Positions 38,882-55,337 are shown, counted from the first letter of the stretch. The stretch is DNA of 64,000 nucleotides from a phage (GCA_020773975.1 GCA_020773975.1_3638.1), one strand, 5' to 3'. A program made the numbers and translations. The notes: a model not told the origin generated them from the letters alone.

Positions 38882-39299
38882 ATTAAAAGTTTTCGACATG
38901 TTAGTGGATATTCACTTCCTGTCTCTAGGGTGTGCCATAGATATATCATGGAAGAGTTGGAACGGTGGTAAATTTATTTTTGGGTCGCTTAGACAAGATA
39001 CCACAAAATATTTTGTAAGTTGCACAAGGAAATCTCTTGAAATACAGAAATTTTTTGGGTCTGGTTGGAAAACATTAATTGATCCCAGCATGACACTTGA
39101 CCCACAAAATATATCAGAGAGTGAAAAACTCTTGGTAAATATTCTCCCAGGACTCACAGATTTTGAGAGGGAACTCTACGAAGTGGCTGGGAATGTGGCT
39201 AAAATGTGGGCAGATGACCACACACAAGAAACGGATGCAAGGGAGTACGTGAGGAAGTTTCTCCATAGTCATCTCGATTGGGATACACCAGAAGAGTAA
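38865..39299 (+). CDS. hypothetical protein
   Basis: ORF. Confidence 0.4.
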   Translation: MNTQNKLKVFDMLVDIHFLSLGCAIDISWKSWNGGKFIFGSLRQDTTKYFVSCTRKSLEIQKFFGSGWKTLIDPSMTLDPQNISESEKLLVNILPGLTDFERELYEVAGNVAKMWADDHTQETDAREYVRKFLHSHLDWDTPEE

Positions 39300-39354
39300 A
39301 ATTTAACCACACAGGGAGGCTAACGCACGTAGTCTCCCATATGTCCCCATTTCA

Positions 39355-39378
39355 GGGACATGGGTATGTCCCTGTTTT
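39355..39378 (+). terminator. rho-independent terminator within a cluster of overlapping GGGACAT/ATGTCCC hairpins (39341-39385)
   Basis: GGGACAT-gggt-ATGTCCC followed by TGTTTTG. Confidence 0.55.
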
Positions 39379-39430
39379 GGGGACACAATACTAACTGATC
39401 AAATTAAACTAACTTATAAGATCTATTAAA

Positions 39431-39564
39431 TATAATACTACGTATTATAATACTATGATCTATTTAATATAATATATTATACTACGTATAATATAATTTA
39501 ATATGATCTAATATAATATAATATAAATTATATAATATAATTTAATATAATACTACGTATTATA
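39431..39564. repeat. very AT-rich segment with three copies of inverted repeat TATAATAC-TAC-GTATTATA
   Basis: Copies at 39431-39449, 39476-39492, 39546-39564. Confidence 0.7.
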
Positions 39565-40040
39565 TATTATAATATATATATTATATAAAATTTATTTAAA
39601 ATACACTAAGTCTTGAAGAATGTCAAGACTTGATTTTAAATATTTTTGTTGATATGATTCGATTGAGTCGAATCGTATGGTTCGATGATTTCGAATCATA
39701 GAGTTCATAGTGTTTTGCCTGAAAGTGTGAGTCGATGAGACTCTTCAGGCAATACGTGAGTGTGTAAGATGCTCACTGCGCTGATAGCTTGTGACCATCT
39801 AACCCTCATGAGCCATTCTGAGATAAACCCACATCAACAAACCCTACAGGTTTGTCTCTGTGTGTTGATCTCAATCATGGATTCGGGTTGTCACAGGTCA
39901 CTATGTGACTCTGTGTGTGGGGGATTTTGAATGTGTACCGGAGCATGGCGCACAGGACTGGTTCATCTGTCTGTCTCAACTGGGGCGCGGCGGGTGTCAA
40001 GGTTTAGTTTTACGTTTGTTTGGGTGTGGAGGAGAGTTTT

Positions 40041-40358
40041 ATGGCCTACGATGAAAATTCTATCCGTGTGCTGTCACCTGAGGATATCAAACAACGATTT
40101 GACTGGGTACGCATCGGGGATTTGGTTCACGAATATAACTTACCTGTGGATTGGGTCAGACGTGGTTTTGAAGCGTGCTGGAGGTTAGACATCGATCCTG
40201 ATTATTTTATCAACAAGTACATCCTCAAGCAGGATGTTGATCCTGTACCTGATTTTGAGGCTGTTTTTAAGGAGATTGTTATGGAGTCTCGATTCAAGGA
40301 TCAGGTATGCACTCGGCAGTCTCAAAAACGCACCTACGAATCAGATTTGCAAATGTAG
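40041..40358 (+). CDS. early-region hypothetical protein
   Basis: RBS GGAGGAGAG before ATG 40041. Confidence 0.45.
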   Translation: MAYDENSIRVLSPEDIKQRFDWVRIGDLVHEYNLPVDWVRRGFEACWRLDIDPDYFINKYILKQDVDPVPDFEAVFKEIVMESRFKDQVCTRQSQKRTYESDLQM

Positions 40359-40437
40359 CCTACGGATAGGTAAAAACATCAACGAAAATCGATTCTCCGC
40401 TGGATCTACAGAGTAAATTTTCAATTTTCGGAGAAAA

Positions 40438-40812
40438 ATGATGAAACGTACCATGACAGATAAAGAGCGCGAAATTGCCCTCCAGTTAGCAAGAGAAAAA
40501 AGAGAGCAACAAAAGCGAGAATGGACTGCGCTGGCAGAAGCGGGAAAAATACGCCAACATTTCGCTGACGCTAATCACTGGACAAGGCTTCGTAGCAAGT
40601 ATAGGATTTCGTCTCCGTACAAATTAGCTCCCGCAGAAAGTGAGCATGGAATGAAAATTCTTAGACGAACGATCAGACTGACCGGAGGATTCGAGTGGTT
40701 CAATGAGTCTTTCGGTATGGACATCAAGCAGTTTGTCAGAATGAACCATACGTGGCCTGCATACGCCATTCAGGGGATCATCCTTGAAGAGTGGGATGAT
40801 TATCAGAATTGA
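40438..40812 (+). CDS. early-region hypothetical protein
   Basis: RBS GGAGAAAA before ATG. Confidence 0.45.
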   Translation: MMKRTMTDKEREIALQLAREKREQQKREWTALAEAGKIRQHFADANHWTRLRSKYRISSPYKLAPAESEHGMKILRRTIRLTGGFEWFNESFGMDIKQFVRMNHTWPAYAIQGIILEEWDDYQN

Positions 40813-40905
40813 TTTTTGTTGTATTTCTGGTAGCCAACTGGTATGTTTATTACAGGGAGTGATAAACACCCCTGTGTTACTTGTTTTATACAGGAGAGTT
40901 GATAT

Positions 40906-41520
40906 ATGTCTTGGCCTTTTTTGATTTATCTTATTGATGTTCTTAGTACGGATGGGAAGTATGATGGCTGGGGATTCTTGTTGTTTCTGTGTGTTATTGT
41001 ATACATGCTGATGCGTATTCTTCCAAAGATCCTCGAAAAACCTAAGCTGGATATCTATCCAGGACAAAACCTTGTTTTAGCACAAGACTGGTCACGATTT
41101 AAAGCCGGAGATGTTCTTGTTGTGAAGGATACTGCGGGTGGTGATGTTCTTCTTCGCCACGGGGAGGAATCACTTGGTTATTGGGTGGGTAAGAGCATTT
41201 TACGAAAAGTGTGCAAACTTGATGAAAAACAAGAATATATCCCACAGCAAGATGCGATGGAAACACCGCGAAAGTTAACTGTTATTGCTATGGTTGTCTG
41301 TGTAATAGGTATTCTATATGCCAACTTCATGCCGCAGAAAGAGACTTCTTACAAGATGCTTGCTGCGTATGTAGGTCAAAACATTGTAGAATCTCCAAGG
41401 ACTCAACAACTTGCAGACAGCACAATCAAGTATCTGGATGCCCAAATCAAGAAGTACACCCAAGAATTGGGTGACGAGGGGAGTAAGGAGTCTAAGCCTG
41501 GTGAGAAGGTGAAAGAATGA
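40906..41520 (+). CDS. membrane protein
   Basis: RBS; two hydrophobic segments. Confidence 0.45.
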   Translation: MSWPFLIYLIDVLSTDGKYDGWGFLLFLCVIVYMLMRILPKILEKPKLDIYPGQNLVLAQDWSRFKAGDVLVVKDTAGGDVLLRHGEESLGYWVGKSILRKVCKLDEKQEYIPQQDAMETPRKLTVIAMVVCVIGILYANFMPQKETSYKMLAAYVGQNIVESPRTQQLADSTIKYLDAQIKKYTQELGDEGSKESKPGEKVKE

Positions 41521-41882
41521 TGGGAAAGCCATTTGAAATAAAACGAATAGCGTTGGACTTTGATGATACTTTCACGCTAGATACTGAGAGATGGTCACAA
41601 TTTGTTGCTATATTCGCAGCAAAAGATTCAGGTTGGTGTGTTAAATTTGTTACTTATCGATTCGACTCAGATGATAACTCTGATATCCAGTTTTGGGCTG
41701 AAAAACTAGGTATCGAAATAATTTATTGCAATGGTATCCAGAAAGCACAAGTTTGTGCAGAACTTGGTTGGATCCCAGATGTGTGGATAGACGATTTTCC
41801 TGTTCTCATTCCTGTGAAACAACAACTACAGGGTATGCTTTTAGGAATAGAAAATAACGAAGAAAAACACAATGTTAAGTAG
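41517..41882 (+). CDS. small HAD-like hydrolase, possibly 5'(3')-deoxyribonucleotidase-like
   Basis: IALDFDDTF (DxDxT motif I) and WIDDFP. Confidence 0.35.
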   Translation: MMGKPFEIKRIALDFDDTFTLDTERWSQFVAIFAAKDSGWCVKFVTYRFDSDDNSDIQFWAEKLGIEIIYCNGIQKAQVCAELGWIPDVWIDDFPVLIPVKQQLQGMLLGIENNEEKHNVK

Positions 41883-42119
41883 TTTAAGGGGGAGTGTTGA
41901 GAAGCGTTGCGTATTACAAATTCAAATGTTGGGAGAAACTCTATGATTTGAGCTACCTTATTTTTGGGAATCTCCCTGTCACTGAAGACATTAAACACAA
42001 AATGTATCTTGCATACATGAAATACCGTCTCCACGAAAGAAAGAGTGGTTGATGAGAATGTTATGATGCCCTGTAGATACTCTCTACAGGGCTTGAATGC
42101 TTAATCACAGGACTTACCA

Positions 42120-42944
42120 ATGACAAGTATTTTACACACGACAGGTATTTTACCACACTATCAGAAGGACTATTCTTTCCCTGATTTCTCTGGGGATATG
42201 TTGCAAATATACGACAAAGTGCAAGGCGAAGTGTCGGAGCTACAGTTTAGTTCAGACCCTGATGATGAGCAAGAGTTTGATAAACAGATTTGTCGTGTAG
42301 AAAACGAGCTTATAGAGCTACAATCATTAGCCAAATCAACAGATATCGAAGACTTAAGGCGATACGTCGAGAATCTTGAAAATTTAGTGTTCGGGCTTTC
42401 GCAAGCTATTATAAACATTGGTGAAATTGCTAAAATTGCCTCTGACAAGTTGCCAGACAACGCAGAAGATATTGAAGAAGCGTTGCAGAATATCTGCTAT
42501 GAAGGAAGTTCTGCTCTCGGTTGTGAATGTAATCTAGGAAATGCTCTTGAAGAACGTGGGTGGAGCCTAGCCCAAAAAACTTTTGTTTATCTTGTTATTG
42601 GTGGTGAGTTCCCACGACTTTTACAACTTAATGCCCTTTTTGGAAACAGTCAGAGCGATAATATTGCATTAGGTATTGATGGTTGGTTCTGCTTAAGAGG
42701 TAAAGAATTAACATTTTGTCGTGGCGATGATGTGTTAATTCTCAATGCTTCTAAACCTGGTGTTGGAATAACAGTAAGACTTAATGGTAAGTCCACTAAT
42801 TTCCACACCACAGAATTGACAGATATTTTTATGGACATATTCGATCCTACAGAAGACGAAATTCTTATGTATGAAATGACCAGTGGAAAAAGGTATGATA
42901 TTTTGTTGTGGAGAAATATTTTCGGTAAGAAGAAAAGTTTATAG
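42120..42944 (+). CDS. hypothetical protein
   Basis: 274-aa ORF. Confidence 0.45.
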   Translation: MTSILHTTGILPHYQKDYSFPDFSGDMLQIYDKVQGEVSELQFSSDPDDEQEFDKQICRVENELIELQSLAKSTDIEDLRRYVENLENLVFGLSQAIINIGEIAKIASDKLPDNAEDIEEALQNICYEGSSALGCECNLGNALEERGWSLAQKTFVYLVIGGEFPRLLQLNALFGNSQSDNIALGIDGWFCLRGKELTFCRGDDVLILNASKPGVGITVRLNGKSTNFHTTELTDIFMDIFDPTEDEILMYEMTSGKRYDILLWRNIFGKKKSL

Positions 42945-43204
42945 TATGATATTTTATCGCTGATATTTGTTTTCCCTGTGATATTTTTGTCACAGGGAAA
43001 GTTTCAACAACAGATATTTTCTTGATACTTTAAAACTCTACCAGAATTTAAAATTCTGTAAATTTAGAAAACTATTACTTATAAGCGTTTCGACACAATT
43101 TTGTTATGAAAGCCTTGTTTTTATATAAAAACCTGTTTTAGCATGAGTGGTAGGATCACACTCCATACTACCTTTATTCCTACAGATGAGCACCTCCATG
43201 TCCG

Positions 43205-43420
43205 AAAACTCGGTTCTCGATCGAAAATTCATTTTCCAGATCGTATTTGCTCCTTACGGAGAAAATTTTTTAGGGCTACAAATTTCAGTTCTCGATCAGT
43301 TTTTCGATTTCAAAATCGTATTTGTTTTTTCTTGCGAAAAATTTCGCACGCTCAGTTCTCGATCGAGTTTTCAAAATCGAAATCGTATTTGCTCTATAGC
43401 GCGAAAAAATTTTTATGGGT
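43205..43420. repeat. three tandem direct repeats of 67-75 bp
   Basis: Cores GTTCTCGATC(GA) at 43213, 43288, 43355 and ATCGTATTTG at 43240, 43315, 43382. Confidence 0.7.
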
Positions 43421-43796
43421 ATCATAATTCTATCACACACTTAAACGCAAAGCAACATAAAAATTTTTGTTGAATGATAATCATTCTTATTTGCATAATG
43501 ACAGGCAGGAGCGGTGTCTTATCCTCCCCCGTTGACCATCGTCGCCGTAGTTTGAAGTTTATAGCCGTTCTCGGCTTATATCTTTGTTAGATATAGATTA
43601 GCATAATTGATAAAGAAAGCAAGTTTTAGGCATAATCTTTACGTTTCTTTACAAATTTATTTTTGACGAGTTACCGGCGATCGACCTTCCAACCAGCGCC
43701 CTGATATGTTAGCCCCGCCTTTACGCCGTGGGGATGGCGTTTCCTCTTCTGTATGTGAAACATTATAAGCCCGACCCCCGGGCTTGTCAAACATTT

Positions 43797-44063
43797 TTAT
43801 TGTTTATTTTCTTGCCAGGTTAGGACACCTAGCCAGAAATGGCAATCACCTTTCGCCCATTGTGGTATATTGCTTTCTTTCCCACCTTCCCGCGCCCAGG
43901 AATAACCGCCCGTGTAACTTTGCAATTGATAACTATCCTCGACCTTATAATCTGACAGGCTGAGAACTGTTTCTACCTTTAAGCCCGTTGCGCTCGCTAC
44001 CTGGTGGATAGTTCCCCCTTGCCAGCCTAACGCGTGCATAAGGTGCAATGTGGTAGTGGTCAT
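43797..44063 (-). CDS. hypothetical protein, antisense to the early block
   Basis: RBS AGAGGAA upstream; GC-richer than surroundings by eye; hairpin AAGCCCGACCCCCGGGCTT just downstream. Confidence 0.4.
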   Translation of the reverse strand: MTTTTLHLMHALGWQGGTIHQVASATGLKVETVLSLSDYKVEDSYQLQSYTGGYSWAREGGKESNIPQWAKGDCHFWLGVLTWQENKQ

Positions 44064-44142
44064 TTTTTCTATTCCTCTGTTAGTTGGCTAGTTGTTAAAA
44101 TTATATCTATAACCAGCCAGGTTAGCAAGGCAAATAAAAGAG

Positions 44143-44193
44143 AAAAATTTTTTAAAAATAGTATTGACAGCGGGGGTAGTATAGATCTACTAT
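44143..44193 (+). promoter_or_regulatory. sigma70-like promoter with A/T UP element (cassette copy 1)
   Basis: AAAAATTTTTTAAAAATAGTATTGACA then 18 nt then TACTAT. Confidence 0.5.
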
Positions 44194-44248
44194 GTGCACA
44201 TCAAGGCGATACACCGCCACCAACCAACCTAAAAAGGGGTGAATTAAT

Positions 44249-44596
44249 ATGAAAACCATCGTTAACGCTGAGAATGTATCTTTTGATAAGTTGAGCGACG
44301 CACAAAAAGAAAAAGCCATTGATCTTATTCGTGAGCGTGAAAGAGAAAGTAATAATGATTTCTTTGCTGATAGTGTCATTGAAGACTATAAGAATGACAT
44401 TTTGCCAGAGTACGGGATCGATGACGCGGTTATCTATTGGTCAGGATTCTGGTCGCAAGGCGACGGCGCATCAATCAGCACTGACCGCGTGGATATTGAA
44501 AAATTTTTAAGAAAAGTTAAATCTTTAACAAAATTCAGAGGGATCCGCAAACTATTTGATATTGATGAAGATGGAAAAGTTTACGCTATCGCTTAA
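44249..44596 (+). CDS. early-region hypothetical protein
   Basis: Leader AAAAGGGGTGAATTAATATG shared with the gene at 50099. Confidence 0.5.
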   Translation: MKTIVNAENVSFDKLSDAQKEKAIDLIRERERESNNDFFADSVIEDYKNDILPEYGIDDAVIYWSGFWSQGDGASISTDRVDIEKFLRKVKSLTKFRGIRKLFDIDEDGKVYAIA

Positions 44597-44636
44597 AAGT
44601 GCTTGCATTCAGTTTTAAAATAGGAGGTAAATAAAA

Positions 44637-44993
44637 ATGGCAATCAAGGCAATCATGTTAGAACTTACAGACTTCCGTAATACTGTAAAAAATTTAACCA
44701 AAAAACAGGTTGATAATATTATCAACGGATACCGTAGCAAGATTAAAGATCTTCCGCTTAAACGCGATCAACATGCGGCTAATATGATGCTTGACGCTAT
44801 GATCAAAAAGATGATTCAGTGCGATCTTACTCTGGCTTATGAATACGCTGGCGATCTCTTTGTAACGTATAATAAGCCAGTGCCAGGCATGTGCACCACG
44901 GAAGAATTGCACGCCCTGAATCTAAAACAAGATGCATGGGATAATATGCGCCGCGTTATGGTGTGGGCAGAAAGCGGTAAAATTTATCAATAA
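44637..44993 (+). CDS. early-region hypothetical protein
   Basis: RBS AGGAGGTAAAT. Confidence 0.5.
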   Translation: MAIKAIMLELTDFRNTVKNLTKKQVDNIINGYRSKIKDLPLKRDQHAANMMLDAMIKKMIQCDLTLAYEYAGDLFVTYNKPVPGMCTTEELHALNLKQDAWDNMRRVMVWAESGKIYQ

Positions 44994-45000
44994 AGATAGT

Positions 45001-45038
45001 TGTCTTTTAGTTATGCCGTGGTAGAATACACGGCATAG
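45001..45038 (+). promoter_or_regulatory. promoter with -10 inside a palindrome
   Basis: TTGTCT - 16 nt - TAGAAT; ATGCCGTG (45014-45021) and CACGGCAT (45030-45037) flank the -10. Confidence 0.5.
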
Positions 45039-45069
45039 ATAAGAGAAACTACTTATCAGAGTTTAAAAG

Positions 45070-45288
45070 ATGAAAAATATTACGGGTAAAACCGAGCTAT
45101 TAAAGGCGCTTTCTGTCGGTGAGTCAGCTTTATGGGTATGTGAAAAAGATCGCCTACCGTCGCGTGAGATGGCCTTGTTTAAGGCTTTATCTTTGAAGCT
45201 GAAAATTAAATTATCCCAAAAATTAGCGGTTGTTGCCGCACCTGGGGAAACTGCTTTCAGTATCGTAATGGTTAAAAGGTTGGAGTAG
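45070..45288 (+). CDS. early-region hypothetical protein
   Basis: ORF; weak RBS. Confidence 0.35.
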   Translation: MKNITGKTELLKALSVGESALWVCEKDRLPSREMALFKALSLKLKIKLSQKLAVVAAPGETAFSIVMVKRLE

Positions 45289-45306
45289 AAAAAATTAAAA
45301 ATTATA

Positions 45307-45335
45307 TTGACAAGCAAAACAGCAAAAATTAAACT
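45307..45335 (+). promoter_or_regulatory. sigma70-like promoter
   Basis: TTGACA - 17 nt - TAAACT. Confidence 0.45.
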
Positions 45336-45373
45336 TACACACAGTTAAATAAACAATATTAACGAGGTAAATC

Positions 45374-45745
45374 ATGAAACAGTTAACCGCTTCCCAAAAA
45401 GCAATGATCCGTGAGTATGTTTTAAACTCTCTTTCTTTCGATATTGAATCGGGTAGCGAGCAAGAGCAGATCAAAGAATTAAAAAACCGATTTGAATCTG
45501 AATACTGGTACGATAGCAACAAGAAACGCTATCAAAATGATAAAGTACAAGGCCTCAAAAATTGGTTGCAAGGCTTGCCGAGTGGTGTTAATATCGATTT
45601 CACTTATTACGATATTGAGCAACGCCTTAAAGATCTTGGAATCATTACCGAGACGACCAGAGAAAGCACTATTGAAAAATATATATCTGAGTGGTGGGAT
45701 CTGGTAGCGCCGTTTTATGCTGGGCTAATCGTCAACTTAAAATAA
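45374..45745 (+). CDS. early-region hypothetical protein
   Basis: RBS GAGGTAAAT. Confidence 0.5.
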   Translation: MKQLTASQKAMIREYVLNSLSFDIESGSEQEQIKELKNRFESEYWYDSNKKRYQNDKVQGLKNWLQGLPSGVNIDFTYYDIEQRLKDLGIITETTRESTIEKYISEWWDLVAPFYAGLIVNLK

Positions 45746-45823
45746 TTATTGCAAACTATCTAAAACTGGTTTAAATTAAAGGGAGTGAGTTTAATCACTC
45801 CCAACATGAAAGAGGTTAATCAA

Positions 45824-46135
45824 ATGAATACTTATTTTTCTACTCGTTCACTTGCACGCATTGCAGCGAAAGAAACAGGCGGTAAAGTTTTAGATAATGG
45901 CAAAGATGCGCCGATCGGTAAACGTTGGCAAGTTATCCCTGGCTATGTTATTGAAGCCGTCCAGGATACAGCAAAACAACGCGCTGAGATGGAAAATAAA
46001 CCAGTAGTCACCTTGTCCATTGGTAAGCGTAGCAATGTAGCGAATCAAGCCCGTAAGGCGCTTTATTACGCCATCAATTACGCAAGAAATAATAAAACTG
46101 TTCCGCTTTATCATAAGCGTTCATTTAAGAAATAA
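45824..46135 (+). CDS. early-region hypothetical protein
   Basis: RBS AAAGAGGTTAAT before ATG 45824. Confidence 0.45.
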   Translation: MNTYFSTRSLARIAAKETGGKVLDNGKDAPIGKRWQVIPGYVIEAVQDTAKQRAEMENKPVVTLSIGKRSNVANQARKALYYAINYARNNKTVPLYHKRSFKK

Positions 46136-46204
46136 TTTTTAATTAGATAAAAAGCGCCCTAAGAAATGGGCGCTAAACAAAAACACTTAAAGAGGTAAAT
46201 TATT

Positions 46205-46555
46205 ATGGCTAGCATTGTAGAAATTTTCAAAAAAGCTGTTGAAAATAAAAACGCTGAGTTGTCTTTAACGTCTTTGAATTTTACTGATGCTTACGGTAAT
46301 ACTTATTTTGTTTATGAGCTTGGTTTTACTTGTCCTGAGTTAAAAACATGGGAAACGTTGCATAAATCTCGCGATCTGCAATATGGATATGGTGATCACG
46401 TTTTAACTGTTGCAATGAAAGACCTTTCAACTATTACCGGGGTAAAATCTGAGGCCGCATATATTACCCGTTGGGCGCATGACAACGGCTTAAAAATTAG
46501 TGTCAACAAGCGCACCAATTGCCGGAAAAAAGATTTAAAACAGTTTATCGCTTGA
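46205..46555 (+). CDS. early-region hypothetical protein
   Basis: RBS AAGAGGTAAAT. Confidence 0.5.
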
Positions 46556-46580
46556 TCCTGTTAATCATCTTGGTGGTTGT

Positions 46581-46931
46581 ATGATCCAGTTTTATATAAT
46601 CATCGCGGCGCTTGCAATTTACTTAGGATTGCACCAAAAAGTATTCAGGGTAATTCTTTGGTTTTATTACGAGTACAGGATCAGAATGGGTTATCACTAT
46701 ATCGAATACTCTTTCCACGGCGAGAGATACCACACAAGGAGATCCGGCCCATTAAATGATCTTGAGGGAAACGGTTTAATCTGTGAGGTCAAAAAGCGGG
46801 GCGGGAAAATTCTTTACCACAAAGAGGGCACTTTTGATTATATTGATGAGGTGATTAATTTTAGGCAACAAGCCGTAAAAGATCACGCCAGCAAAATAAT
46901 CAACGGCAGCTATAAACGCAAAGCGGGGTAA
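46581..46931 (+). CDS. hypothetical protein with N-terminal TM segment
   Basis: ORF. Confidence 0.4.
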   Translation: MIQFYIIIAALAIYLGLHQKVFRVILWFYYEYRIRMGYHYIEYSFHGERYHTRRSGPLNDLEGNGLICEVKKRGGKILYHKEGTFDYIDEVINFRQQAVKDHASKIINGSYKRKAG

Positions 46932-47122
46932 TATGCGGAATTTTGAAAAAATTGTTAAAGCTAATCGCCTGGAATACGGGGAAACAGACGAAAAACGGGA
47001 ACGGGTAGGCAAACGCCATAAACCTAAAAAGGTTCCTAAATTGTGGTGTCCTGATAAATACGATCACAAATTAAAACAGCGTATCGCTGAGAAACAGCGA
47101 TTAAACGCAAGATAACAGACAA

Positions 47123-47146
47123 GGCCGGAACTATCCGGCCTTTTTA
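47123..47146 (+). terminator. rho-independent terminator
   Basis: GGCCGGA-acta-TCCGGCC followed by TTTTT. Confidence 0.65.
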
Positions 47147-47510
47147 ATGCCTGGTGGCGTTCAGAACGATTAAAACTATTAAAGATGGTCCGATGTACCA
47201 CAAAATAAAATAGCTCGTTAGAGAGTGTTTTAGAGGCCTTAAAATCGATCCTAAAAATATCTATAAAAATGCTTGCAATGCTTTCCCGCTATCGTTATAG
47301 TGTTCCCAACAAGCAAGCAAACGAGGTTAACGGCAATGATTGAGATTCTTAAAAATCCTATTTTGTGTGGTATGGTTGTTTCTGTGTCACTTCCGATCGT
47401 GCTGTTAGTCGTTAGCGAAATAGATGATTTTATCTTTAATAAAAGACTTGCCAACAAGTCAAAAACAAATTAATATAGTATCAGCATACTAACTAGCGAG
47501 GTGATTTAAT

Positions 47511-47729
47511 ATGTTTGGTTTTATTGTTCTATCTTGTTCTCTTCCTGTCACTGCTGCAAAGGTAGAATGTAACTACACTGTAAAAGAGACTTTTAATGAT
47601 GAAAAGTCTTGCAATGTATACGAAAATAATTATAAACTAGGAGACGGGGAGCAGTTCGGGATCTGTGATGAATTAAAGGACGGTATGAAGAAAGGCGATA
47701 AGCGCCCGATCCTGGTCCTGAAAAAATAA
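47511..47729 (+). CDS. small secreted or membrane-anchored Cys-containing protein
   Basis: Signal-peptide-like N-terminus; RBS GCGAGGTGA. Confidence 0.45.
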   Translation: MFGFIVLSCSLPVTAAKVECNYTVKETFNDEKSCNVYENNYKLGDGEQFGICDELKDGMKKGDKRPILVLKK

Positions 47730-47770
47730 TTTTTCTAATCATGTTGATCAATTCTTAAGAGGTGAATAAA

Positions 47771-48058
47771 ATGTTTGAAGTTTTCGCGGGTATGTGTTTT
47801 TATACAGCTTTGGCAGTTCGCCAATGTGATGATTATATCGTTGAATCATACGATGATCAGTTGACTTGCGAAATAGTCGCTAATGACTACGGCAAAAAAG
47901 ATCGCTGGATTAATCCGGCTTGCATACCATCCCCAGAGGTAGAAGCCATGCCGGAAGGGGAAGAGGTATCAAATCCAGTTGTAGCAGTATCCTCCTTTTT
48001 CGTTGACAACCTGGACGCCCAAGAATTGATCAACATGTATGTAAAAAATCAAAAATAA
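47771..48058 (+). CDS. early-region hypothetical protein
   Basis: RBS AAGAGGTGAATAAA before ATG 47771. Confidence 0.45.
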   Translation: MFEVFAGMCFYTALAVRQCDDYIVESYDDQLTCEIVANDYGKKDRWINPACIPSPEVEAMPEGEEVSNPVVAVSSFFVDNLDAQELINMYVKNQK

Positions 48059-48061
48059 CGC

Positions 48062-48097
48062 TTGACGTTGATTTGTGCCACCTTATAATAGGTGGCA
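48062..48097 (+). promoter_or_regulatory. promoter with consensus -10 inside a palindrome
   Basis: TTGACG - 16 nt - TATAAT; TGCCACC (48076-48082) and GGTGGCA (48091-48097) flank the -10. Confidence 0.55.
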
Positions 48098-48148
48098 TAG
48101 GTAAGCGAAAGCGGATCTAAGTCTTAAACAAGGTAAGAGAGGTAAATC

Positions 48149-48469
48149 ATGGAACAAGCTAATAAATTTTTCTTCCTGGCTGGGATCGTGGATAATGTGA
48201 AATGTGATTTCAAGCGTGAAAATGATAAGACGTTACTCACTTTCTGCGATATGCTTGATCATGAGAATGCCGACAAGTTACGAATCGAGATCCGCACGAT
48301 AACCAATATCGACAATTCAAGCCGTTTAATTTATAAATCTCATTCGATAGCTTACAGCTTGGAAACATCAACAAGCTGCATACAACAAGGTGAGAGCTTG
48401 CCCATTCTAAATAGTGCCGATGTATTTGGCGCGGTTGTTGCAATTGTAAATGATGTTTTTTCTCGTTGA
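48149..48469 (+). CDS. early-region hypothetical protein
   Basis: RBS AGAGAGGTAAAT. Confidence 0.5.
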   Translation: MEQANKFFFLAGIVDNVKCDFKRENDKTLLTFCDMLDHENADKLRIEIRTITNIDNSSRLIYKSHSIAYSLETSTSCIQQGESLPILNSADVFGAVVAIVNDVFSR

Positions 48470-48586
48470 TTGGTGTTAATATTATGTTAGAGAATATCGT
48501 GTTTTGGTGTGGTGTCGTTATCGCTGTTATGGTTGGCATCCTGGCGACGATGGCGAACATTGTGATCTCAAACAACCTGGCAGGGT

Positions 48587-48635
48587 AAAAATTTTTTAAA
48601 AATAGTATTGACATACTGGCGGCATATGGTATCAT
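48587..48635 (+). promoter_or_regulatory. sigma70-like promoter with A/T UP element (cassette copy 2)
   Basis: Same 27 nt AAAAATTTTTTAAAAATAGTATTGACA as at 44143; TG-extended -10 TATCAT after 16 nt. Confidence 0.5.
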
Positions 48636-48686
48636 TTACCACATGAAGGGGCGAGATTGACTTGCCTCACTAACGAAAGGTAAATA

Positions 48687-48956
48687 ATGATGAACATTTC
48701 TAAAACTACTTTTAACTTTGCTAAAAAGCGTGGAATTTAGCTTGAGCTAGTCGAAGCAGATGATCGCTTGCTCCTGGCTTTTTATGAAGCTAAAAACGAA
48801 TGTGAGTGGATGTTCTCTTATAATGTTAATCATGATTGCCTAACCTGGCGCGGAAATATCTATCTTTCAAACGAAGTGAAAGAGGAATTACCCGCCACGA
48901 TCACGACTGAGAAAAAACTACGTGAGGTTATTGACTTCATCTCTAAAAGTATCTAA
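48687..48956 (+). CDS. reading frame interrupted by an in-frame TAG at 48738-48740
   Basis: RBS AAAGGTAAAT then ATGATG; 17 codons, TAG, then 72 in-frame codons with no ATG until 48810. Confidence 0.3.
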
Positions 48957-49002
48957 GATTACAGGGAAAGGGGCAAAAGCCCCCTACCGCAGAAGGTATA
49001 AA

Positions 49003-49227
49003 ATGGATAAATTAACAAAGATTGAACATGAAGTTATGGATCTTGCAAGGGCTAATAGGCCATTTGACAAGATTTTCTCTAAGGAGAATAAAGAGATCTT
49101 GAAAGATCTAACGCAAGGTCAAAAAGACGGCTTGCGCCGCTTATATCGTGAGGCGTATGACTATTTTCGCTGGTGGGAAATAGAAGAGGCTAACGCGAAA
49201 ATAGAAGGCCTAGAAAATTTAGTATAA
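49003..49227 (+). CDS. early-region hypothetical protein
   Basis: RBS GAAGGTATAAA before ATG 49003. Confidence 0.45.
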   Translation: MDKLTKIEHEVMDLARANRPFDKIFSKENKEILKDLTQGQKDGLRRLYREAYDYFRWWEIEEANAKIEGLENLV

Positions 49228-49233
49228 AAGTAG

Positions 49234-49270
49234 TTGACTTTTACTTATGCCGTGATAGAATGCACGGCAT
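49234..49270 (+). promoter_or_regulatory. promoter with -10 inside a palindrome (second copy of the 45001 type)
   Basis: TTGACT - 16 nt - TAGAAT; ATGCCGTG (49247-49254) and CACGGCAT (49263-49270). Confidence 0.55.
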
Positions 49271-49322
49271 AGATAAGAGAGACGGCACAAGCCATTGATT
49301 AAACTTAAAGAGGTAAATTATC

Positions 49323-49724
49323 ATGAATACTTACAAAACTGTTTTTAATTTCGACAACTTCAAAGCTATCTGTGACGATCAGATCGGTAAGTGCCGTAAA
49401 GAAAAAGGATTCTATAAATCTTATAAATTGATTGCGGTTGTTGATGAAGAGATCACCGAAGTGGCAACGCTCAACCTGTACCACACCAACGCTACTAATT
49501 ACGCTTGCCTGTGGATGCACTGGACCAATATTAAAGGTTGGGATCATGGCTATGTTGGCGGGAAAGCAAGCGGATACGGTTACGACAGGGAGGAGGCCGC
49601 GATCCATGTCGTAGCTAATAAGCTCGGTATTACTGGCAACTGGTTTAAAGGTGAGCAATTGCTAGATGCGATGGCACGCCATTTTGATATGAAAGGCGCA
49701 AAGGTTATAACTTGCAACGCGTGA
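49323..49724 (+). CDS. early-region hypothetical protein
   Basis: RBS AAGAGGTAAAT. Confidence 0.5.
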   Translation: MNTYKTVFNFDNFKAICDDQIGKCRKEKGFYKSYKLIAVVDEEITEVATLNLYHTNATNYACLWMHWTNIKGWDHGYVGGKASGYGYDREEAAIHVVANKLGITGNWFKGEQLLDAMARHFDMKGAKVITCNA

Positions 49725-49771
49725 TCATTCAATAGCGGGGAATATTCCCCGCTTATAGATAGGGCATAATC

Positions 49772-50023
49772 ATGATTTACGATCTTAAATATTACGACGA
49801 ATTGAGCATTACAGCACAATTAACCGCCCGTGTCAATATTATAGCAGACCTTGAGAATCACCACAGAAAGCGCATAGTCCAGACTATCGCAAGTTTTAAA
49901 AATAATCCTCATAAAGTGATTAATGACACGAAGCACATTCAACGCCTCAGAAACGGCGCAAAGGCGCTTTATAGTGTACAAGTTTTAACGAGATCGCCCC
50001 GCGTTTTGACTGGTCGAGCTTAA
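49772..50023 (+). CDS. early-region hypothetical protein
   Basis: ORF after hairpin AGCGGGGA-atat-TCCCCGCT. Confidence 0.4.
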   Translation: MIYDLKYYDELSITAQLTARVNIIADLENHHRKRIVQTIASFKNNPHKVINDTKHIQRLRNGAKALYSVQVLTRSPRVLTGRA

Positions 50024-50098
50024 AAACAATAGTTTAAAATTAATTTAGTTATTGATAAAATCTTATATAAAACTTTAATCTAAAAGGGGTGAATTAAT

Positions 50099-50299
50099 AT
50101 GAAACGTTTTACCTATGGTGTTGTTGGTGGTTATGTTTCAAACCGGTTTTACAATACCGAGCGTGGTGCTAAAAATGCGGCTACCCGTGGATATGGCAAT
50201 AGTGCAAATTTACAAGTTGGCTACATTAGCAAAATTAGCGGTATGTTTATTCCGGTTGCTCAACGCGGCATGTATTGCATAAACTGGATGCCAATGTAA
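50099..50299 (+). CDS. early-region hypothetical protein
   Basis: Leader identical to that of the gene at 44249. Confidence 0.45.
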   Translation: MKRFTYGVVGGYVSNRFYNTERGAKNAATRGYGNSANLQVGYISKISGMFIPVAQRGMYCINWMPM

Positions 50300-50314
50300 A
50301 AAGGAGTAATAAAA

Positions 50315-50506
50315 ATGGATGTATCACAAGTTAGAAAGGTATTAGCAGCGTTACGCTATCACAATTATAGCAAGGTGAAGAATGATCCTGATTATGTTGA
50401 TTCCAGCTTGGAGGAAGACACCTTGCAAGCTATAAGCCATATGCAGGAATTGCTTAAGCGTATGACAGAGAAGAACAGATCTGATTATATAGGTGAAGAG
50501 ATTTAA
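50315..50506 (+). CDS. early-region hypothetical protein
   Basis: RBS AAAGGAGTAAT. Confidence 0.45.
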   Translation: MDVSQVRKVLAALRYHNYSKVKNDPDYVDSSLEEDTLQAISHMQELLKRMTEKNRSDYIGEEI

Positions 50507-50540
50507 TCTCTTACAACCGCACAAAGTAAAATTGTACAAG

Positions 50541-50567
50541 GGGCGCATTAAGCGCCCTTTATTTTTG
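50541..50567 (+). terminator. rho-independent terminator closing the early block
   Basis: GGGCGC-attaa-GCGCCC followed by TTTATTTTTG. Confidence 0.65.
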
Positions 50568-50951
50568 CCCTAACAAGCATGATAAGTTTTATCTATCAAA
50601 ACACCACACAGAAAAAAGTGAATAAAACGCGGTATCGAGCTAAACGAGGGTAGGCAGTACAACGGCAAGGGTAAACAATTAAGGCCGTTATAACGCGATT
50701 TAGGCCGCTTAAAATCGATCCCCATCACGAACAACCCCCATAATCTGACCAAAACGACACAACATGACTTAAATGATAACCATTCTCAACAACATAAGAA
50801 TTTTTATGCAATTTTAGTGAATATCTATTTAAATGATAATGACTCTCAACAACAAAATAACACGACCGAAGCGATTTAATCGCCTATCACAAAACAAATC
50901 AATTGTAAAGAACAATTTAAAAGCTGCGTAAGTGGCGCGACCGTAGGGAGC

Positions 50952-51177
50952 GACACAATAACGCAGTAGTAACCCCTCCCCCTCACTCCTTACAGTCGCC
51001 CGGTATCGGGATAGCGTTATTATGTCGCTACGCGCCAACGCGTTAACAATTTTGCAAAGAAGCCTGCTTTGCAGGTTAAGCGCATTGCGCTTAATCGCGT
51101 AGCGACTATGTGAAATTATAACAGTTAAATTATTAATAAAATCTTGCAAAATTGTTAACCTACTGCGTTATTGTGTC
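50952..51177. repeat. nested inverted-repeat locus (three different perfect IR pairs)
   Basis: 18-bp pair 50952-50969 / 51160-51177; 11-bp pair 51024-51034 / 51096-51106; 16-bp pair 51042-51057 / 51144-51159; central hairpins. Confidence 0.7.
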
Positions 51178-52047
51178 CTGTATATAATTCGTTAAATTAA
51201 CCAAATTAATCCCCGATTATTACGCAGTAAATCACCTGCTTTTAACCCTGTTAATGTGCCACGTAGTGATCTGCTATCTTGCCCAGGGATAACCGCATGG
51301 CATGCGGTTAAATGCTGTTAAGTGCTTGAAATGCCAGATCAATTTGGTCACTGCGTGATTATGATTGCGACAATAATTTGCTATTTATTTGTTATAATTT
51401 GTTATAATTTGTTAAACACTCTTTTATCTTTTCTCTTACATTTTCGTTATATTTGATTTGTTATCGTTTTCCCTCATTTCGCTTCGTTATTGAAAACAAG
51501 AATTATTATCATTGATACGCCTTAACAGGCTGGCGGGTCTGTTAGTGGTCTGGCTCTCTGTGTGGTCATGTTGTTATTGGTTGTGATAGCTTGGTTTTAT
51601 TGTCTGGCCTGTTATTGTTAGCTTGCTTATTGTTGTGTGGTGTATGTATTAGTTAGCTAGTACATTAGCTGGTGCGCATAACGTGTATTATGTTAAATCA
51701 GGTGGCCCACAAGTAAGGTGGCTTGTCAATAACAATAAGTGCTATGTGCGGTAGTCTGGCCCATCAGTGTGCCCCTTTGTTGTGTGGTGCTCTCAGTGTG
51801 TGACCTGTCTGCTGTGTGCGCTGCGCCAAATCTCGAGCGGTTCTCGATCACAATAGCTGTAGGATATTTTCAAAACATCCGAATTTCCATCGACACCCCC
51901 AGCTCATCTGCCTGTCACCTCTGAGATAAAGCTGTAGATATTTTCACTCCTCACATCATGCACAAGTTAATACATGCAAGTCTTTACAGACAGGGGTGGG
52001 TGGTGTAAAATACCTGTGCCAACAGTACAAAACACAGAGGAGGTTTA

Positions 52048-53508
52048 GTGGCAAAACAGTTCTTTGACAAACATTACATGGAAACGCATTTTGTAGAGAA
52101 ACCTCTGCATCGCCTGAACTTTACAGATTTAGAAGGAATGAGGTTTGGCAAGATAACGGTGCACAAACTTAACAGAAGAGAGGATAAGTCTTTTGTGTGG
52201 TGGTGTACGTGTGATTGTAACCCATCCAGATATTTTATGGTTGTGCCTTACTCACTTAAAACAGGGGTGACAACATCTTGTGGTTGCAATTATAAAACTA
52301 ATGGAGGGAATATACATGAAACACTCCAAGAGTTTCAAAAGAAAGTTGGTGGTGATTGGGAGATTATCTCATACCAAGGTAGAAAGCACGATTGTGTTGC
52401 CAAATGTACTATGTGTGGGAGTATTGTCACCAAACAAGGTGGCTCATTTATCTGCGGTGTGACGTGCCATTGCACTGATAAAAGAATAAAGAGGCGTGAT
52501 GATATTTTGCATCTTGCGGGGTACAGTCTGATCAAAGAAGAGAAAGTTCAACAGCAGAATGGTGAATATATAATGCACTTGCGCTGTAAATCTTGTGGTG
52601 TTAAGAAACTGACGCGAAACACGGAGTTAAGGGATTTAAAGCCATGCCTGTGTAGAGGCGACCACACCAACAATGGGAAACCTTGCGCCATTTACCTGCT
52701 TTCACATAAAGATGGTAAGTATTGTAAGATTGGTAGGTCTTATAGCCCCTCCTCAAGATTACGTATGATTAATGGTTCTGGTGGCGACTTTATATTGGAG
52801 CATGTTTGGTGGACACCTAACTATCACTACGCATCTGTGCTGGAGACAACACTCCACAGGGAATTTTCTGAGCATCGCTTTGACGCTGGTGGTTTCGATG
52901 GGAGCACAGAGTGTTTCTACATAAAGCCTGACAAATTGGCAAAAGGAATATCTGAGATAGTCGCCAAGTTGGTTGGGGATTACAAACCTGAAGATGGGGT
53001 GTTGACAAAAGATGTGAAGATAAGGAATAACTACAAGAACAGCGGTATGATTGTGAAGTCTAGGAGTTATCACTTCAAAGAGTCAGATGTGTGTTTGTGG
53101 ATACCTTATAAAGGGTATCTCAGAAAGAAGAGATCCCCATTCTCCTCTTGGGAGATGGCAGAAGAGTGTCACTATTTAGCTGCAAATGTGCAGCCTTCCA
53201 AAAACTTAGATAGGTTTAAAATTTATGATGTGGATGGGGTTACTGACTCCATAGCAGGTTGGTCAAGGAGAACTGGAATCCCTGCTCAGACACTTACGTG
53301 GAGAATGCAACGCACAGGCATGACAATGAAAGAGGCGATTAATTATTGCAGACCAGACACTGTTATTTGGTGTGGCGGGAAAATGGTTAAGAAGAGAGAT
53401 CTTAAAAGCATTATCGGTGTTTCTTGGGAGTCGGTTTATACAGCATCCAGAAAAAGCAAGAAGTCCCCAGAACATATTATAGAAGAAATACTGAAAAGGG
53501 CCACTTAA
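52048..53508 (+). CDS. free-standing GIY-YIG/T5orf172-like homing endonuclease-like protein
   Basis: GTG start with RBS AGAGGAGG; Cys-rich N-terminal repeats; AIYLLSHKDGKYCKIGRS; C-terminal HTH-like IAGWSRRTGIPAQTLTWRMQ. Confidence 0.5.
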   Translation: MAKQFFDKHYMETHFVEKPLHRLNFTDLEGMRFGKITVHKLNRREDKSFVWWCTCDCNPSRYFMVVPYSLKTGVTTSCGCNYKTNGGNIHETLQEFQKKVGGDWEIISYQGRKHDCVAKCTMCGSIVTKQGGSFICGVTCHCTDKRIKRRDDILHLAGYSLIKEEKVQQQNGEYIMHLRCKSCGVKKLTRNTELRDLKPCLCRGDHTNNGKPCAIYLLSHKDGKYCKIGRSYSPSSRLRMINGSGGDFILEHVWWTPNYHYASVLETTLHREFSEHRFDAGGFDGSTECFYIKPDKLAKGISEIVAKLVGDYKPEDGVLTKDVKIRNNYKNSGMIVKSRSYHFKESDVCLWIPYKGYLRKKRSPFSSWEMAEECHYLAANVQPSKNLDRFKIYDVDGVTDSIAGWSRRTGIPAQTLTWRMQRTGMTMKEAINYCRPDTVIWCGGKMVKKRDLKSIIGVSWESVYTASRKSKKSPEHIIEEILKRAT

Positions 53509-53541
53509 GGCCCGTTGTGTTGTTGGTATGGGACACCCGAC

Positions 53542-53793
53542 TTACCATTGACCAGGTAAACCAATATCAAGGCCAAATTCGTGACACTCATCCCAGTCAA
53601 GACTTTGATTCCAGTTTGTAACTGTCCTCTCTGTGTGGTGGGTGTATGATGCTCTCCGTGACTGCTTTGGCATCTTTTTTGTCTGAGATTTCCCGAAAAG
53701 AGGTGTGTTGTCATTGAGTCTTCCGGCAGCCTTTTCACCCTTTTTGACTTGTCTCCCACGGGCATTCCACTGCTCCAGTGTCCTGTAACACAT
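53542..53793 (-). CDS. small basic protein
   Basis: RBS AGGAGAAT before ATG; Lys/Arg-rich. Confidence 0.35.
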   Translation of the reverse strand: MCYRTLEQWNARGRQVKKGEKAAGRLNDNTPLFGKSQTKKMPKQSRRASYTHHTERTVTNWNQSLDWDECHEFGLDIGLPGQW

Positions 53794-54193
53794 AAAATCA
53801 TTCTCCTGTAATATCTGGTGTGGGGATAATGACAGATTGTACCAGAGGTGTCAAGTCTGTTGACCAGAGTGTGTGGGAGGGGTGTCGCTATAAAAAATTT
53901 TTGGAGAGCTTTCTATGGTTTATTCTGTAGCTTCAGACAGGCCATAAACCCAGATGTGACGGGGCTTTCAGCTATGTTGTGTGTTGATCGCAAATAAGGA
54001 TAAAATAATCAATATAAATGCAGATAAATGTTGTTTTATTGTGTTTGTGTAACTGGGGTGTCATGTCTTGATAGGTTATGACCTGTACATATTTTGTACA
54101 GAAGTGTGGTGTGCAGAGTGGAGGTGGCAATTCCCCAGACGGGGGTGGGGGTAGGTCATGGTGGAGAGCAGGGGCATGGTTAGCCCCATATGA

Positions 54194-54517
54194 TCAGGGT
54201 TGTGCGTCTGTTTGTTTGAACTGGTCTTTTGAACGTATTACATAACCACAACCATATTTTCTCAGCCAGACCAGTTCCCATGGACTATCACTCAGGTTAT
54301 TCCTGTTTATCTCTTTTAGCTGGGCAACCGCATCGTCCCATGATGTGACTTCGAGATAACCGATAAGACTGTCCTCTCCAAAATCTCCATAATCAAATGT
54401 ACATTTGACCTTGGCGATGAACTCTGTCTGTGGGTTTGTTGGTTTTACAAAAACCCAGTGGAAGATTTGTTCTGTGCAGTGCTCATTCACCCATCTGATT
54501 TGTGTGGTCATAATCAC
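54194..54517 (-). CDS. hypothetical protein
   Basis: ORF. Confidence 0.4.
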   Translation of the reverse strand: MIMTTQIRWVNEHCTEQIFHWVFVKPTNPQTEFIAKVKCTFDYGDFGEDSLIGYLEVTSWDDAVAQLKEINRNNLSDSPWELVWLRKYGCGYVIRSKDQFKQTDAQP

Positions 54518-54520
54518 CTC

Positions 54521-55144
54521 TCATCGTATAATCTCGCCTCGAAAAACTGGCGCTTTCTCCTGGGGTTGCTTTGCCATGTAGTCTTTAATCCGATCATCAA
54601 CCCATTTAATACGTTCTGGGTTGGTGTGACATTTATCATTGAGGCTTTCCAACCAGTAAGCCGCTTGGTCAGCGGTGAATGGAAAATTCAATGGGCGACC
54701 CGCAGCTACGAATTGTGCTTGCATCTCCCGAAGTAAGTTATCCCTTTCTCGCCATGACCAGCGCCATTCTGCATAAGCCTTCAGATTGTTTTTCAGACCT
54801 GTCTGTTTTGAAAACTTATATCCTAGATATTCGTCAGGGTCATTAAGCCATTTCTGGTAAGCCGTGTAAAACTCATATAGTTTTTCACTTGAAACTTTTA
54901 TCTTTGTTGTCTGCATTGGTGGCAGAGGCAGATATGCCCAGTGTGTTGGTTCACACACAATACGTGTATCATCGTGGTAAGCATACTGGAATACACCTTG
55001 CCCAATATGAGCACCAACAAACATTTCTTTAGTGTCTGAACAAAACACCAACACATCTACAAAATCTGGTGGTAACTTATCGGAGCACATTACCCATGTA
55101 TCTGTGTGATGGGTTTTTAATTCCGCAAAAAATTTATTGTTCAT
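54521..55144 (-). CDS. hypothetical protein (possibly prophage DUF551-like)
   Basis: Start at internal ATG with RBS AAGGGTG; motif LPPDFVDVLVF. Confidence 0.4.
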   Translation of the reverse strand: MNNKFFAELKTHHTDTWVMCSDKLPPDFVDVLVFCSDTKEMFVGAHIGQGVFQYAYHDDTRIVCEPTHWAYLPLPPMQTTKIKVSSEKLYEFYTAYQKWLNDPDEYLGYKFSKQTGLKNNLKAYAEWRWSWRERDNLLREMQAQFVAAGRPLNFPFTADQAAYWLESLNDKCHTNPERIKWVDDRIKDYMAKQPQEKAPVFRGEIIR

Positions 55145-55337
55145 ACTTACACCCTTAAAAATAAGGAAAACAGACAGGCGACCCCAGCAAATACACTGAC
55201 ACAACTTAGAAGAATACTCCACAATCTTTTCCAGCCTTTAACAGCAGCACTTTCCGAGAATCCGCAGAGTGCCAATATGAAATTGGAAATTCCAAGAAAG
55301 GCCAGTAGTAAATTTAATAGTATATCTATCATCGGCA

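Follow-up and report, generated by a model that had tools for sequence, protein, structure and literature searches.

Why should an early phage promoter carry its -10 hexamer inside a perfect inverted repeat? The question is raised by three sites in a 64,000-nucleotide (nt) stretch of phage DNA (GCA_020773975.1; the whole stretch is called the window below). The window is Avunavirus-like, within the Vequintavirinae (rV5-like phages), and the region around the sites is 94-95% identical to the Escherichia phages Av-05 (Avunavirus, Vequintavirinae; 94.7%) and vB_EcoM_TH18 (TH18). A preliminary description of these promoters had offered two interpretations, operators for dimeric regulators overlapping the -10, or promoter recognition that depends on a hairpin or cruciform. 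The part of that interpretation which stood up is that a hairpin is under selection, and the part which did not is the operator, as the arms are replaced among relatives with their pairing kept. Each site is probably a composite cassette, in which a sigma-70 early promoter in the DNA is overlaid on an RNA hairpin specific to read-through transcripts.

All three perfect palindromes reported around the -10 boxes are present in the sequence, reading TATGCCGTG-GTAGAATA-CACGGCATA at site 1, TGCCACCT-TATAAT-AGGTGGCA at site 2 and TATGCCGTG-ATAGAATG-CACGGCATA at site 3 (Table 1). Sites 1 and 3 do differ only at the two bases flanking the loop, and the positions first given were exact for site 3 (49247-49270) and site 2 (48076-48097) but one base off for site 1, where the 8-nt arms occupy 45013-45036 and not 45014-45037. 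The -35 boxes are TTGTCT, TTGACG and TTGACT, each lying 16 nt from its -10 hexamer (TAGAAT at site 1, TATAAT at site 2 and TAGAAT at site 3). Sites 1 and 3 also have the TG of an extended -10, and directly 5' of each -35 is an A/T-rich tract (ATCAATAAAGATAG, AAATCAAAAATAACGC and TTTAGTATAAAAGTAG) with an AA.A motif that is conserved in the family alignment described below. Judged by consensus match, a near-consensus sigma-70 early promoter is found at all three sites, which are thus very probably sigma-70 early promoters.

In 60 local-composition shuffles of the window, promoter-like -10 hexamers flanked by a perfect stem of at least 8 base pairs (bp) numbered 0.43 on average with a maximum of 3, compared with 5 in the window itself. 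The three sites are not independent of each other, however. Sites 1 and 3 are paralogues within an 81-nt direct repeat (79% identity), and site 2 is homologous too, the spacer and the GGCATAG(A/G)TAAG flanks being common to all three. The earlier argument, that two different palindromes sharing one architecture speak against chance, was right about chance, as shuffles, z-scores and covariation agree. As the sites are homologous, the meaningful argument against chance is not their number but the conservation of their pairing through compensatory changes.

Each palindrome proved to be only the top of a hairpin of 19-25 bp (~55 nt) that covers the entire promoter, of which the preliminary description had captured the uppermost 8-9 bp. 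When ~70-nt segments around each site were folded, the predicted hairpins had z-scores of -6.9 (hairpin 1), -4.7 (hairpin 2) and -7.0 (hairpin 3). The bases AAAC/AAGCG, ~15 nt downstream of the predicted start, pair with bases around and within the -35 (GTTG with AAAC), the TAAGAG of the initial transcribed region pairs with CTTTTA of the spacer, and the G+C-rich discriminator pairs with the remaining spacer, leaving the -10 hexamer as the apical loop; in hairpin 2 this loop is exactly the TATAAT at 48084-48089. Interruptions of the helix are small (1-nt bulges or 1x1 loops), and hairpins from other genera are of similar length, with 21-23 pairs. With standard spacing from the -10 to +1, transcription is predicted to start at ~45034/5, 48096/7 and 49268/9, in each case inside the 3' arm. 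We have high confidence in this anatomy of hairpin-embedded promoters.

A covariance model of the family matched the window at 44992-45061 (82.0 bits), 48054-48123 (79.8 bits) and 49226-49295 (76.8 bits) and found no further copies there, the next match, of 20.5 bits, being a promoter remnant at 44595-44649. A search of 39000-56000 against Rfam at E <= 1 gave no relevant match. No U-tract follows the helix at any of the three sites, the downstream GATAAGAG and ACTACTTATC are purine-rich, and the sites were absent from the terminator scan; an assignment as canonical Rho-independent terminators was rejected on the missing U-tract and the purine-rich 3' flanks.

The hairpin class has three copies in each of the window, TH18 and Av-05. 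At site 2 the TH18 and Av-05 orthologues have TGCCGCTT/AGGCGGCA in place of TGCCACCT/AGGTGGCA, where a double change has turned A:T into G:C and a U.G pair is present as well, and at site 3 Av-05 has TATACCGTG/CTCGGTATA, with G:C replaced by A:T in a double change and one mismatch besides. With unrelated upper stems, this architecture recurs in 4MG (Seunavirus; GGTGGGGCT/AGCTCCACC and GTTAATGTCTGGGG/TCCCGGACATTGAC), in GAP31 (GATAGGGCTT/AAGCCCTATC), in the Erwinia phage pEp_SNUABM_01 (Henunavirus; AGTGCAGCCC/GGGCGCACT) and in CR3 (Certrevirus; three copies, at 10002, 10743 and 12728 of L170), and the architecture is also found in uncultured contigs of 140-150 kilobases (kb). Between 4MG and GAP31 the upper stem shows two double changes. 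Pattern scans of IMG/VR gave mostly chance matches, with L013, L114, L124, L136 and L163, plus Av-05 and 4MG, as the true relatives; for contigs L136 and L013, megablast against the phage collection gave no close relative. Just one weak case of such a hairpin was seen in EmilieFrey, a phi92-like phage.

RNAalifold applied to 12 copies returned 19 pairs, 12 of them with compensatory changes. A covariance-model alignment was then made of 22 distinct copies from the window, Av-05, TH18, 4MG, GAP31, Erwinia phage pEp_SNUABM_01 and uncultured contigs, a spread of five Vequintavirinae genera plus the contigs. Standard pairs filled 91.9% of the cells of this alignment, as against 38-54% when the 3' partner was slid by 1-3 columns, and double changes were present at 13 of the 19 pairs. 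The covariation score was 0.579, compared with at most 0.111 in the slid controls, and was reached by 0 of 500 shuffles. Covariation extends into the promoter itself, where the sixth base of the -35 changes together with a leader base (pair 14:68; UA in 16 copies, GC in 6, none unpaired): TTGACT accompanies AAGAGA (the AAGAGAAA copies) and TTGACG accompanies AAGCGA.

The pairing is also strand-specific. In the 22-copy alignment, 50 cells hold a G.U pair and only 5 hold A.C or C.A, the antisense equivalent, and the sense RNA was more stable than the antisense RNA in all 17 distinct copies folded, typically by 5-14 kcal/mol. Judged from these comparisons, selection acts on the pairing itself and on the sense strand, which disfavours a duplex operator with fixed half-sites and argues against a true cruciform, where both strands fold. 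The molecule that folds is most likely read-through RNA, since 0-6 nt separate the helix from the stop codon upstream of it, since the neighbouring genes are co-directional with few terminators between them, and since a DNA helix that includes the -35 would be incompatible with normal promoter geometry. The start of hairpin 1 coincides with the stop codon of the open reading frame (ORF) at 44637-44993, hairpin 2 starts one base past that of ORF 47771-48058 and hairpin 3 starts 6 nt past that of ORF 49003-49227; from the end of the helix to the downstream ATG is 35-40 nt.

In the mechanism that we propose, the A/T-rich upstream tract, TTGAC(T/G) -35, 16-nt spacer and TAnAAT -10 would constitute a strong sigma-70 early promoter at the DNA level, and the same ~55 nt would encode, on the sense strand, the hairpin of 19-25 bp. 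RNA started at the promoter would contain only half of the helix, without the 5' arm, and would not fold, so that transcripts from the upstream co-directional gene would be the sole RNAs able to form it; with the predicted start inside the 3' arm, the helix would thus be a signal specific to read-through transcripts. It may act on these by attenuation, or by double-stranded processing together with a structure that protects the 3' end, and the outcome would be that each small early gene cassette is transcriptionally insulated. The position of the -10 in the loop can be understood from this arrangement, because the -10 hexamer is fixed and not self-complementary, and the spacer, discriminator and leader are free to vary. 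At roughly two helical turns, with its small interruptions, the predicted helix would suit a processing site specific for double strands or protection of the 3' end, and the 19-25 predicted pairs correspond to the ~20 bp or more of mostly continuous double-stranded RNA that marks the length of an RNase III site. Attenuation is a possibility as well because of data on the promoter-early stem-loop (PeSL) cassettes that are compared below. Our confidence in an RNA-level function of the hairpin, which comes from these sequence comparisons, is moderate.

Several points weigh against this proposal. Single-stranded DNA can form G.T pairs as well, and the sense strand doubles as the non-template strand, so the strand bias could be read at either level. 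The lack of a U-tract makes canonical intrinsic termination unlikely. The covariance-model alignment leans towards the structure of its model and many of the copies share descent, although the slid controls and the orthologue comparisons are independent of such model-fitting bias. Avunavirus genomes hold just three copies each, and promoter use, start sites and the effect of the hairpin in the Vequintavirinae are what we infer from sequence.

An alternative that we regard as unlikely is that the cassettes of ~70 nt, or their palindromes, are recombination substrates, perhaps targets of a structure-specific nuclease, through which small early genes are gained, lost and shuffled, any transcriptional role of the stem being secondary. 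Sites 1 and 3, as 81-nt direct repeats, flank a 4.2-kb block of about ten ORFs; copies of the family adjoin non-homologous genes in different genera; and contigs L124 and L136 hold a copy without the upper stem and -10. Near 44618 the window is without ~320 nt, comprising a promoter -10, a leader hairpin and the gene peg119, that are present in TH18 and Av-05, and at the junction of this deletion (44572-44649) a promoter remnant with only a -35 is left at 44595-44649, as a cassette deletion would leave it. A modular shuffling mechanism by recombination has been proposed for PeSLs (Arbiol et al. 2010, PMC2839356; Comeau et al. 2014, PMC4122927). Recombination, however, needs sequence identity and not intramolecular pairing, which leaves the compensatory changes and the G.U bias unexplained, and the window, Av-05 and TH18 have no indel relative to one another at any of the three hairpin promoters, so that a shuffling role is weakly supported here.

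Folding of the DNA itself, in which the non-template strand forms the hairpin under negative supercoiling or behind a polymerase and so either presents a pre-melted -10 loop or switches the promoter off, appears quite unlikely. The favoured strand is indeed the non-template strand, whose -10 is read by sigma-70 as single-stranded DNA, and a DNA hairpin can accommodate G.T pairs. Folded with DNA parameters, the plus strand was at least as stable as the minus strand in 16 of 17 copies, by 0.1-5.3 kcal/mol, and hairpin promoters are known for the virion RNA polymerase of phage N4. The predicted DNA energies are modest (-4 to -17 kcal/mol), however, and loops of 6-8 nt and interrupted stems extrude poorly. 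A cruciform would require both strands to fold, with the antisense strand carrying A.C mismatches, and since the helix includes the -35 hexamer its extrusion would abolish the -35/-10 arrangement. Promoter recognition dependent on a hairpin or cruciform, as first suggested, is thus at best a weak candidate in view of the strand-specific pairing, the stability of the sense RNA and the -35 within the helix. The particular version in which a promoter of the host polymerase is gated by structure, the non-template fold showing a melted -10 to sigma-70 or hiding the -35, we consider very unlikely; if true, it would couple firing to upstream transcription via the negative supercoils behind polymerases.

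The operator of the preliminary description, where a dimeric phage or host regulator would bind inverted half-sites, occlude the -10 and shut off early transcription, is highly improbable. The arms are 6-8 bp apart and centred on the -10, resembling operators that overlap a -10, and Avunavirus copies and contig L013 retain the outer TGCC...GGCA. Yet the arm sequences vary among paralogues, orthologues and genera and their complementarity stays: half-sites are not the same within one genome (GCCGTG versus GCCACC) or from one orthologue to the next, compensatory changes fall at inner and outer stem positions between close relatives, and the copies of 4MG, GAP31, the Erwinia phage and CR3 have wholly different arms. 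Tolerance of G.U but not of A.C would be meaningless for recognition of a duplex, and a selected helix of at least 20 bp is beyond plausible operator size. A fixed half-site operator was rejected on the compensatory and wholesale replacement of the stems.

Chance palindromes beside A/T-rich hexamers, of the kind seen at a fourth site and in several A/T-rich hits near 39.5 kb, are a negligible explanation for sites 1-3, for which shuffles, z-scores and cross-genus covariation refute it. The fourth site, which had been counted as part of the set, is TAGTAT-CAGC-ATACTA at 47476-47491, a 6-bp A/T palindrome. As it reads TAGTAC-CAAC-ATACTA in TH18, with one pair lost and no compensation, its membership is weak, and we set it aside as a chance palindrome and not a selected element.

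Table 1. Coordinates of the predicted hairpins, their promoter elements and the small early ORFs downstream
Feature	Coordinates	Strand	Remarks
Hairpin 1	44993..45054	+	25 predicted pairs including 2 G.U; -27.7 kcal/mol in 73-nt context (RNAfold)
-35 of promoter 1, TTGTCT	45000..45005	+	in lower stem, one base bulged; TTGACT in TH18
Upper stem 1, TATGCCGTG/CACGGCATA	45012..45037	+	apical loop GTAGAATA with -10 TAGAAT at 45022-45027
Small early ORF, 72 amino acids	45070..45288	+	predicted to be served by promoter 1; Av05_0029, hypothetical protein
Hairpin 2	48059..48113	+	22 predicted pairs including 4 G.U; -31.0 kcal/mol
-35 of promoter 2, TTGACG	48062..48067	+	base 6 (G) pairs with C of downstream AAGCGAAA
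Upper stem 2	48071..48102	+	13 pairs with G.U allowed; perfect core TGCCACCT/AGGTGGCA at 48076-48097
Small early ORF, 106 amino acids	48149..48469	+	predicted to be served by promoter 2; homologue is 4MG gp137
Hairpin 3	49233..49283	+	19 predicted pairs including 3 G.U; -26.4 kcal/mol
-35 of promoter 3, TTGACT	49234..49239	+	consensus match
Upper stem 3, TATGCCGTG/CACGGCATA	49246..49271	+	loop ATAGAATG; -10 TAGAAT at 49256-49261
Small early ORF, 133 amino acids	49323..49724	+	predicted to be served by promoter 3

The three cassettes are set in a block of small hypothetical ORFs on the same strand, typical of an early region, with few terminators between the co-directional ORFs around the hairpins. 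All neighbours of the cassettes encode hypothetical proteins of 60-130 amino acids, and no tRNAs were found in the window. One small early gene, at 48690-48956, has an in-frame TAG at 48738-48740 where TH18 and Av-05 have GAG (Glu17), and is an amber mutant or a pseudogene in the window phage.

Other differences from the two close relatives were a stretch of 1.1-1.3 kb missing from the window at 49979-50088, and ~1.3 kb at 51930-53541 that is specific to the window, each relative to TH18 and Av-05. Two exact repeats may possibly be recombination substrates, one of 27 nt (44143-44169 and 48587-48613) over the A/T tract and -35 of two promoters and one of 23 nt (44232-44254 and 50082-50104) over the ribosome-binding site and ATG of two genes.

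Further promoter-plus-hairpin arrangements in the window lie at 45781-45802, 48650-48672 and 48970-48983. That at 48650-48672 is a leader hairpin, GGGGCGAG-ATTGA-CTTGCCTC, downstream of promoter 48608 (TTGACA-16-TATCAT), with compensatory changes in Av-05 (GGGGAGAG/CTCTCCCC) and TH18; the -10 of promoter 48608 is itself inside an imperfect inverted repeat, CATATGG...CCACATG. G+C-rich intergenic hairpins without U-tracts are found between early ORFs at 46153-46174, 45781-45802, 48970-48983 and 49734-49752, one of them with a -10-like loop (AGCGCCC-TAAGAAAT-GGGCGCT), and probably represent other classes of the promoter/stem-loop theme. At 54093-54111, 16 nt after a TTGATA (54068), is CTGTAC-A-TATTTT-GTACAG, whose outermost pair is C:G in the window, C.A in Av-05 and T:A in TH18, possibly a compensatory series in another hairpin around a weak -10.

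Inverted repeats of other kinds were also noted. An A/T-rich cluster at 39431-39580, at the switch from leftward to rightward genes, contains three near-identical palindromes (TATAATAC-TAC-GTATTATA and variants) and differs in TH18, which has 11-bp ATTATATATAT arms; divergent promoters are one possible identity of this cluster, an origin-like region another. The gap of 241 nt that precedes ORF 43186 contains a perfect 11-bp inverted repeat at 42971-43000 (TTTCCCTGTGA-TATTTTTG-TCACAGGGAAA) with GATATTT repeats alongside; this inverted repeat is kept in TH18 and has one uncompensated change, in the innermost pair, in Av-05. Outside the window, L030, L050, L059, L067 and ~15 other IMG/VR contigs form an unrelated group with GTTGACTTTT...AATAAGACTATACTTATT...TAAGAGAAACAATTAAC (889-958 in L050). 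This promoter-like element, too, has a hairpin across its -10, with the -35 region and the leader paired lower down.

Among known systems, the hairpin promoters of the N4 virion RNA polymerase share with our sites an inverted repeat at the promoter, but have stems of 5-7 bp and 3-nt loops on the template strand and serve a phage-encoded polymerase, whereas the loop of our hairpins is formed by a sigma-70 -10 box, and a canonical -35 is placed 16 nt from it. The RNase III hairpins between the early genes of T7 are cut in polycistronic RNA to leave a protective 3' hairpin. They, too, are helices of some two turns between co-transcribed early genes, interrupted by small internal loops and followed by no U-tract, but they are not known to overlap promoters.

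Within the same subfamily, the sigma-70-like early promoter of Certrevirus, AAAA(N4)TGTTGAC(N17)TATAAT, has been described at 13-21 sites per genome (Buttimer et al. 2020, PMC7344957). It has the same promoter motif as the sites described here and likewise lies among short hypothetical ORFs of the early region, and all three hairpin-family copies in CR3 belong to this published promoter set, for which the motif only was given, with no stems or hairpins. We counted 26 TTGAC promoters in 20 kb of CR3, most of them with a GGGGCC...GGCCCC stem-loop in the spacer and 3 of the 26 with the -10 in an apical loop; early intergenic regions of 4MG resemble this arrangement. Together these suggest that PeSL-like cassettes of several classes are general in the Vequintavirinae. 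The rV5 paper lists promoters and terminators separately and the CB7 paper lists promoters, neither mentioning stems, and we found no description of hairpin-overlaid promoters or of transcriptomes in Vequintavirinae in the open-access literature. Annotation calls for some caution, as the published promoter lists consulted here for this subfamily omit the structure.

The closest counterparts are the PeSL cassettes of the T4-like phages RB49/phi1, PST/T4 and nt-1/KVP40 (Arbiol et al. 2010, PMC2839356; Comeau et al. 2014, PMC4122927), whose stem-loop is mostly between the -35 and -10, or over the -10. PeSLs share with the present sites an A/T-rich upstream tract, a near-consensus sigma-70 promoter and, ahead of a Shine-Dalgarno sequence and ATG, a stable stem-loop that includes G-T pairs, and both are found among small ORFans in an early, plastic region. 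The upstream motif AAAAGTTGTTGACA of RB49 is very similar to AATAGTTGTTGACT in the window. Both systems also have degraded half copies close to indels, the -35-only remnant of the window resembling the half-PeSLs reported near indels. One PeSL subclass overlaps the -10, as at the three sites here; in RB49 PeSL 186/185, GGGTGTAT-ATCATA-ATACACCC brackets the -10, and the same is seen in 199/198, 193/192 and 205/204. The RB49 stems, however, are of 7-9 bp and rich in GGGG/CCCC, compared with 19-25 bp and a -35 region paired with the leader here, and RB49 PeSLs scored 12-20 bits with our covariance model against 35-89 bits for the Vequintavirinae copies, which makes them analogues and not members of the same RNA family. 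PeSL genomes hold many copies, whereas an Avunavirus genome holds three of this hairpin class, and PeSLs were described in T4-like Straboviridae and the present hairpins are in Vequintavirinae. Promoter activity of PeSLs has been measured, and one stem-loop cut expression of a downstream lacZ as much as rrnB T1 did (PMC2839356); terminator activity and mini-circles are measured properties of PeSLs, where the hairpins here are known from sequence.

Our best reading of the three sites is that they are PeSL-like composite cassettes in a new lineage, with a more extreme architecture. Such cassettes would then apparently not be confined to T4-like phages, but recur in the Vequintavirinae, rV5-like phages that find wide use against E. 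coli, Salmonella, Cronobacter and plant pathogens. In the extreme form seen here a whole sigma-70 promoter appears to be laid on a two-turn RNA helix, with promoter bases that include the last base of the -35 co-evolving with the leader. This suggests a simple way of discriminating promoter-started from upstream transcripts, in that only the latter would form the helix, and offers a compact, testable model for the insulation of many tiny early phage genes.

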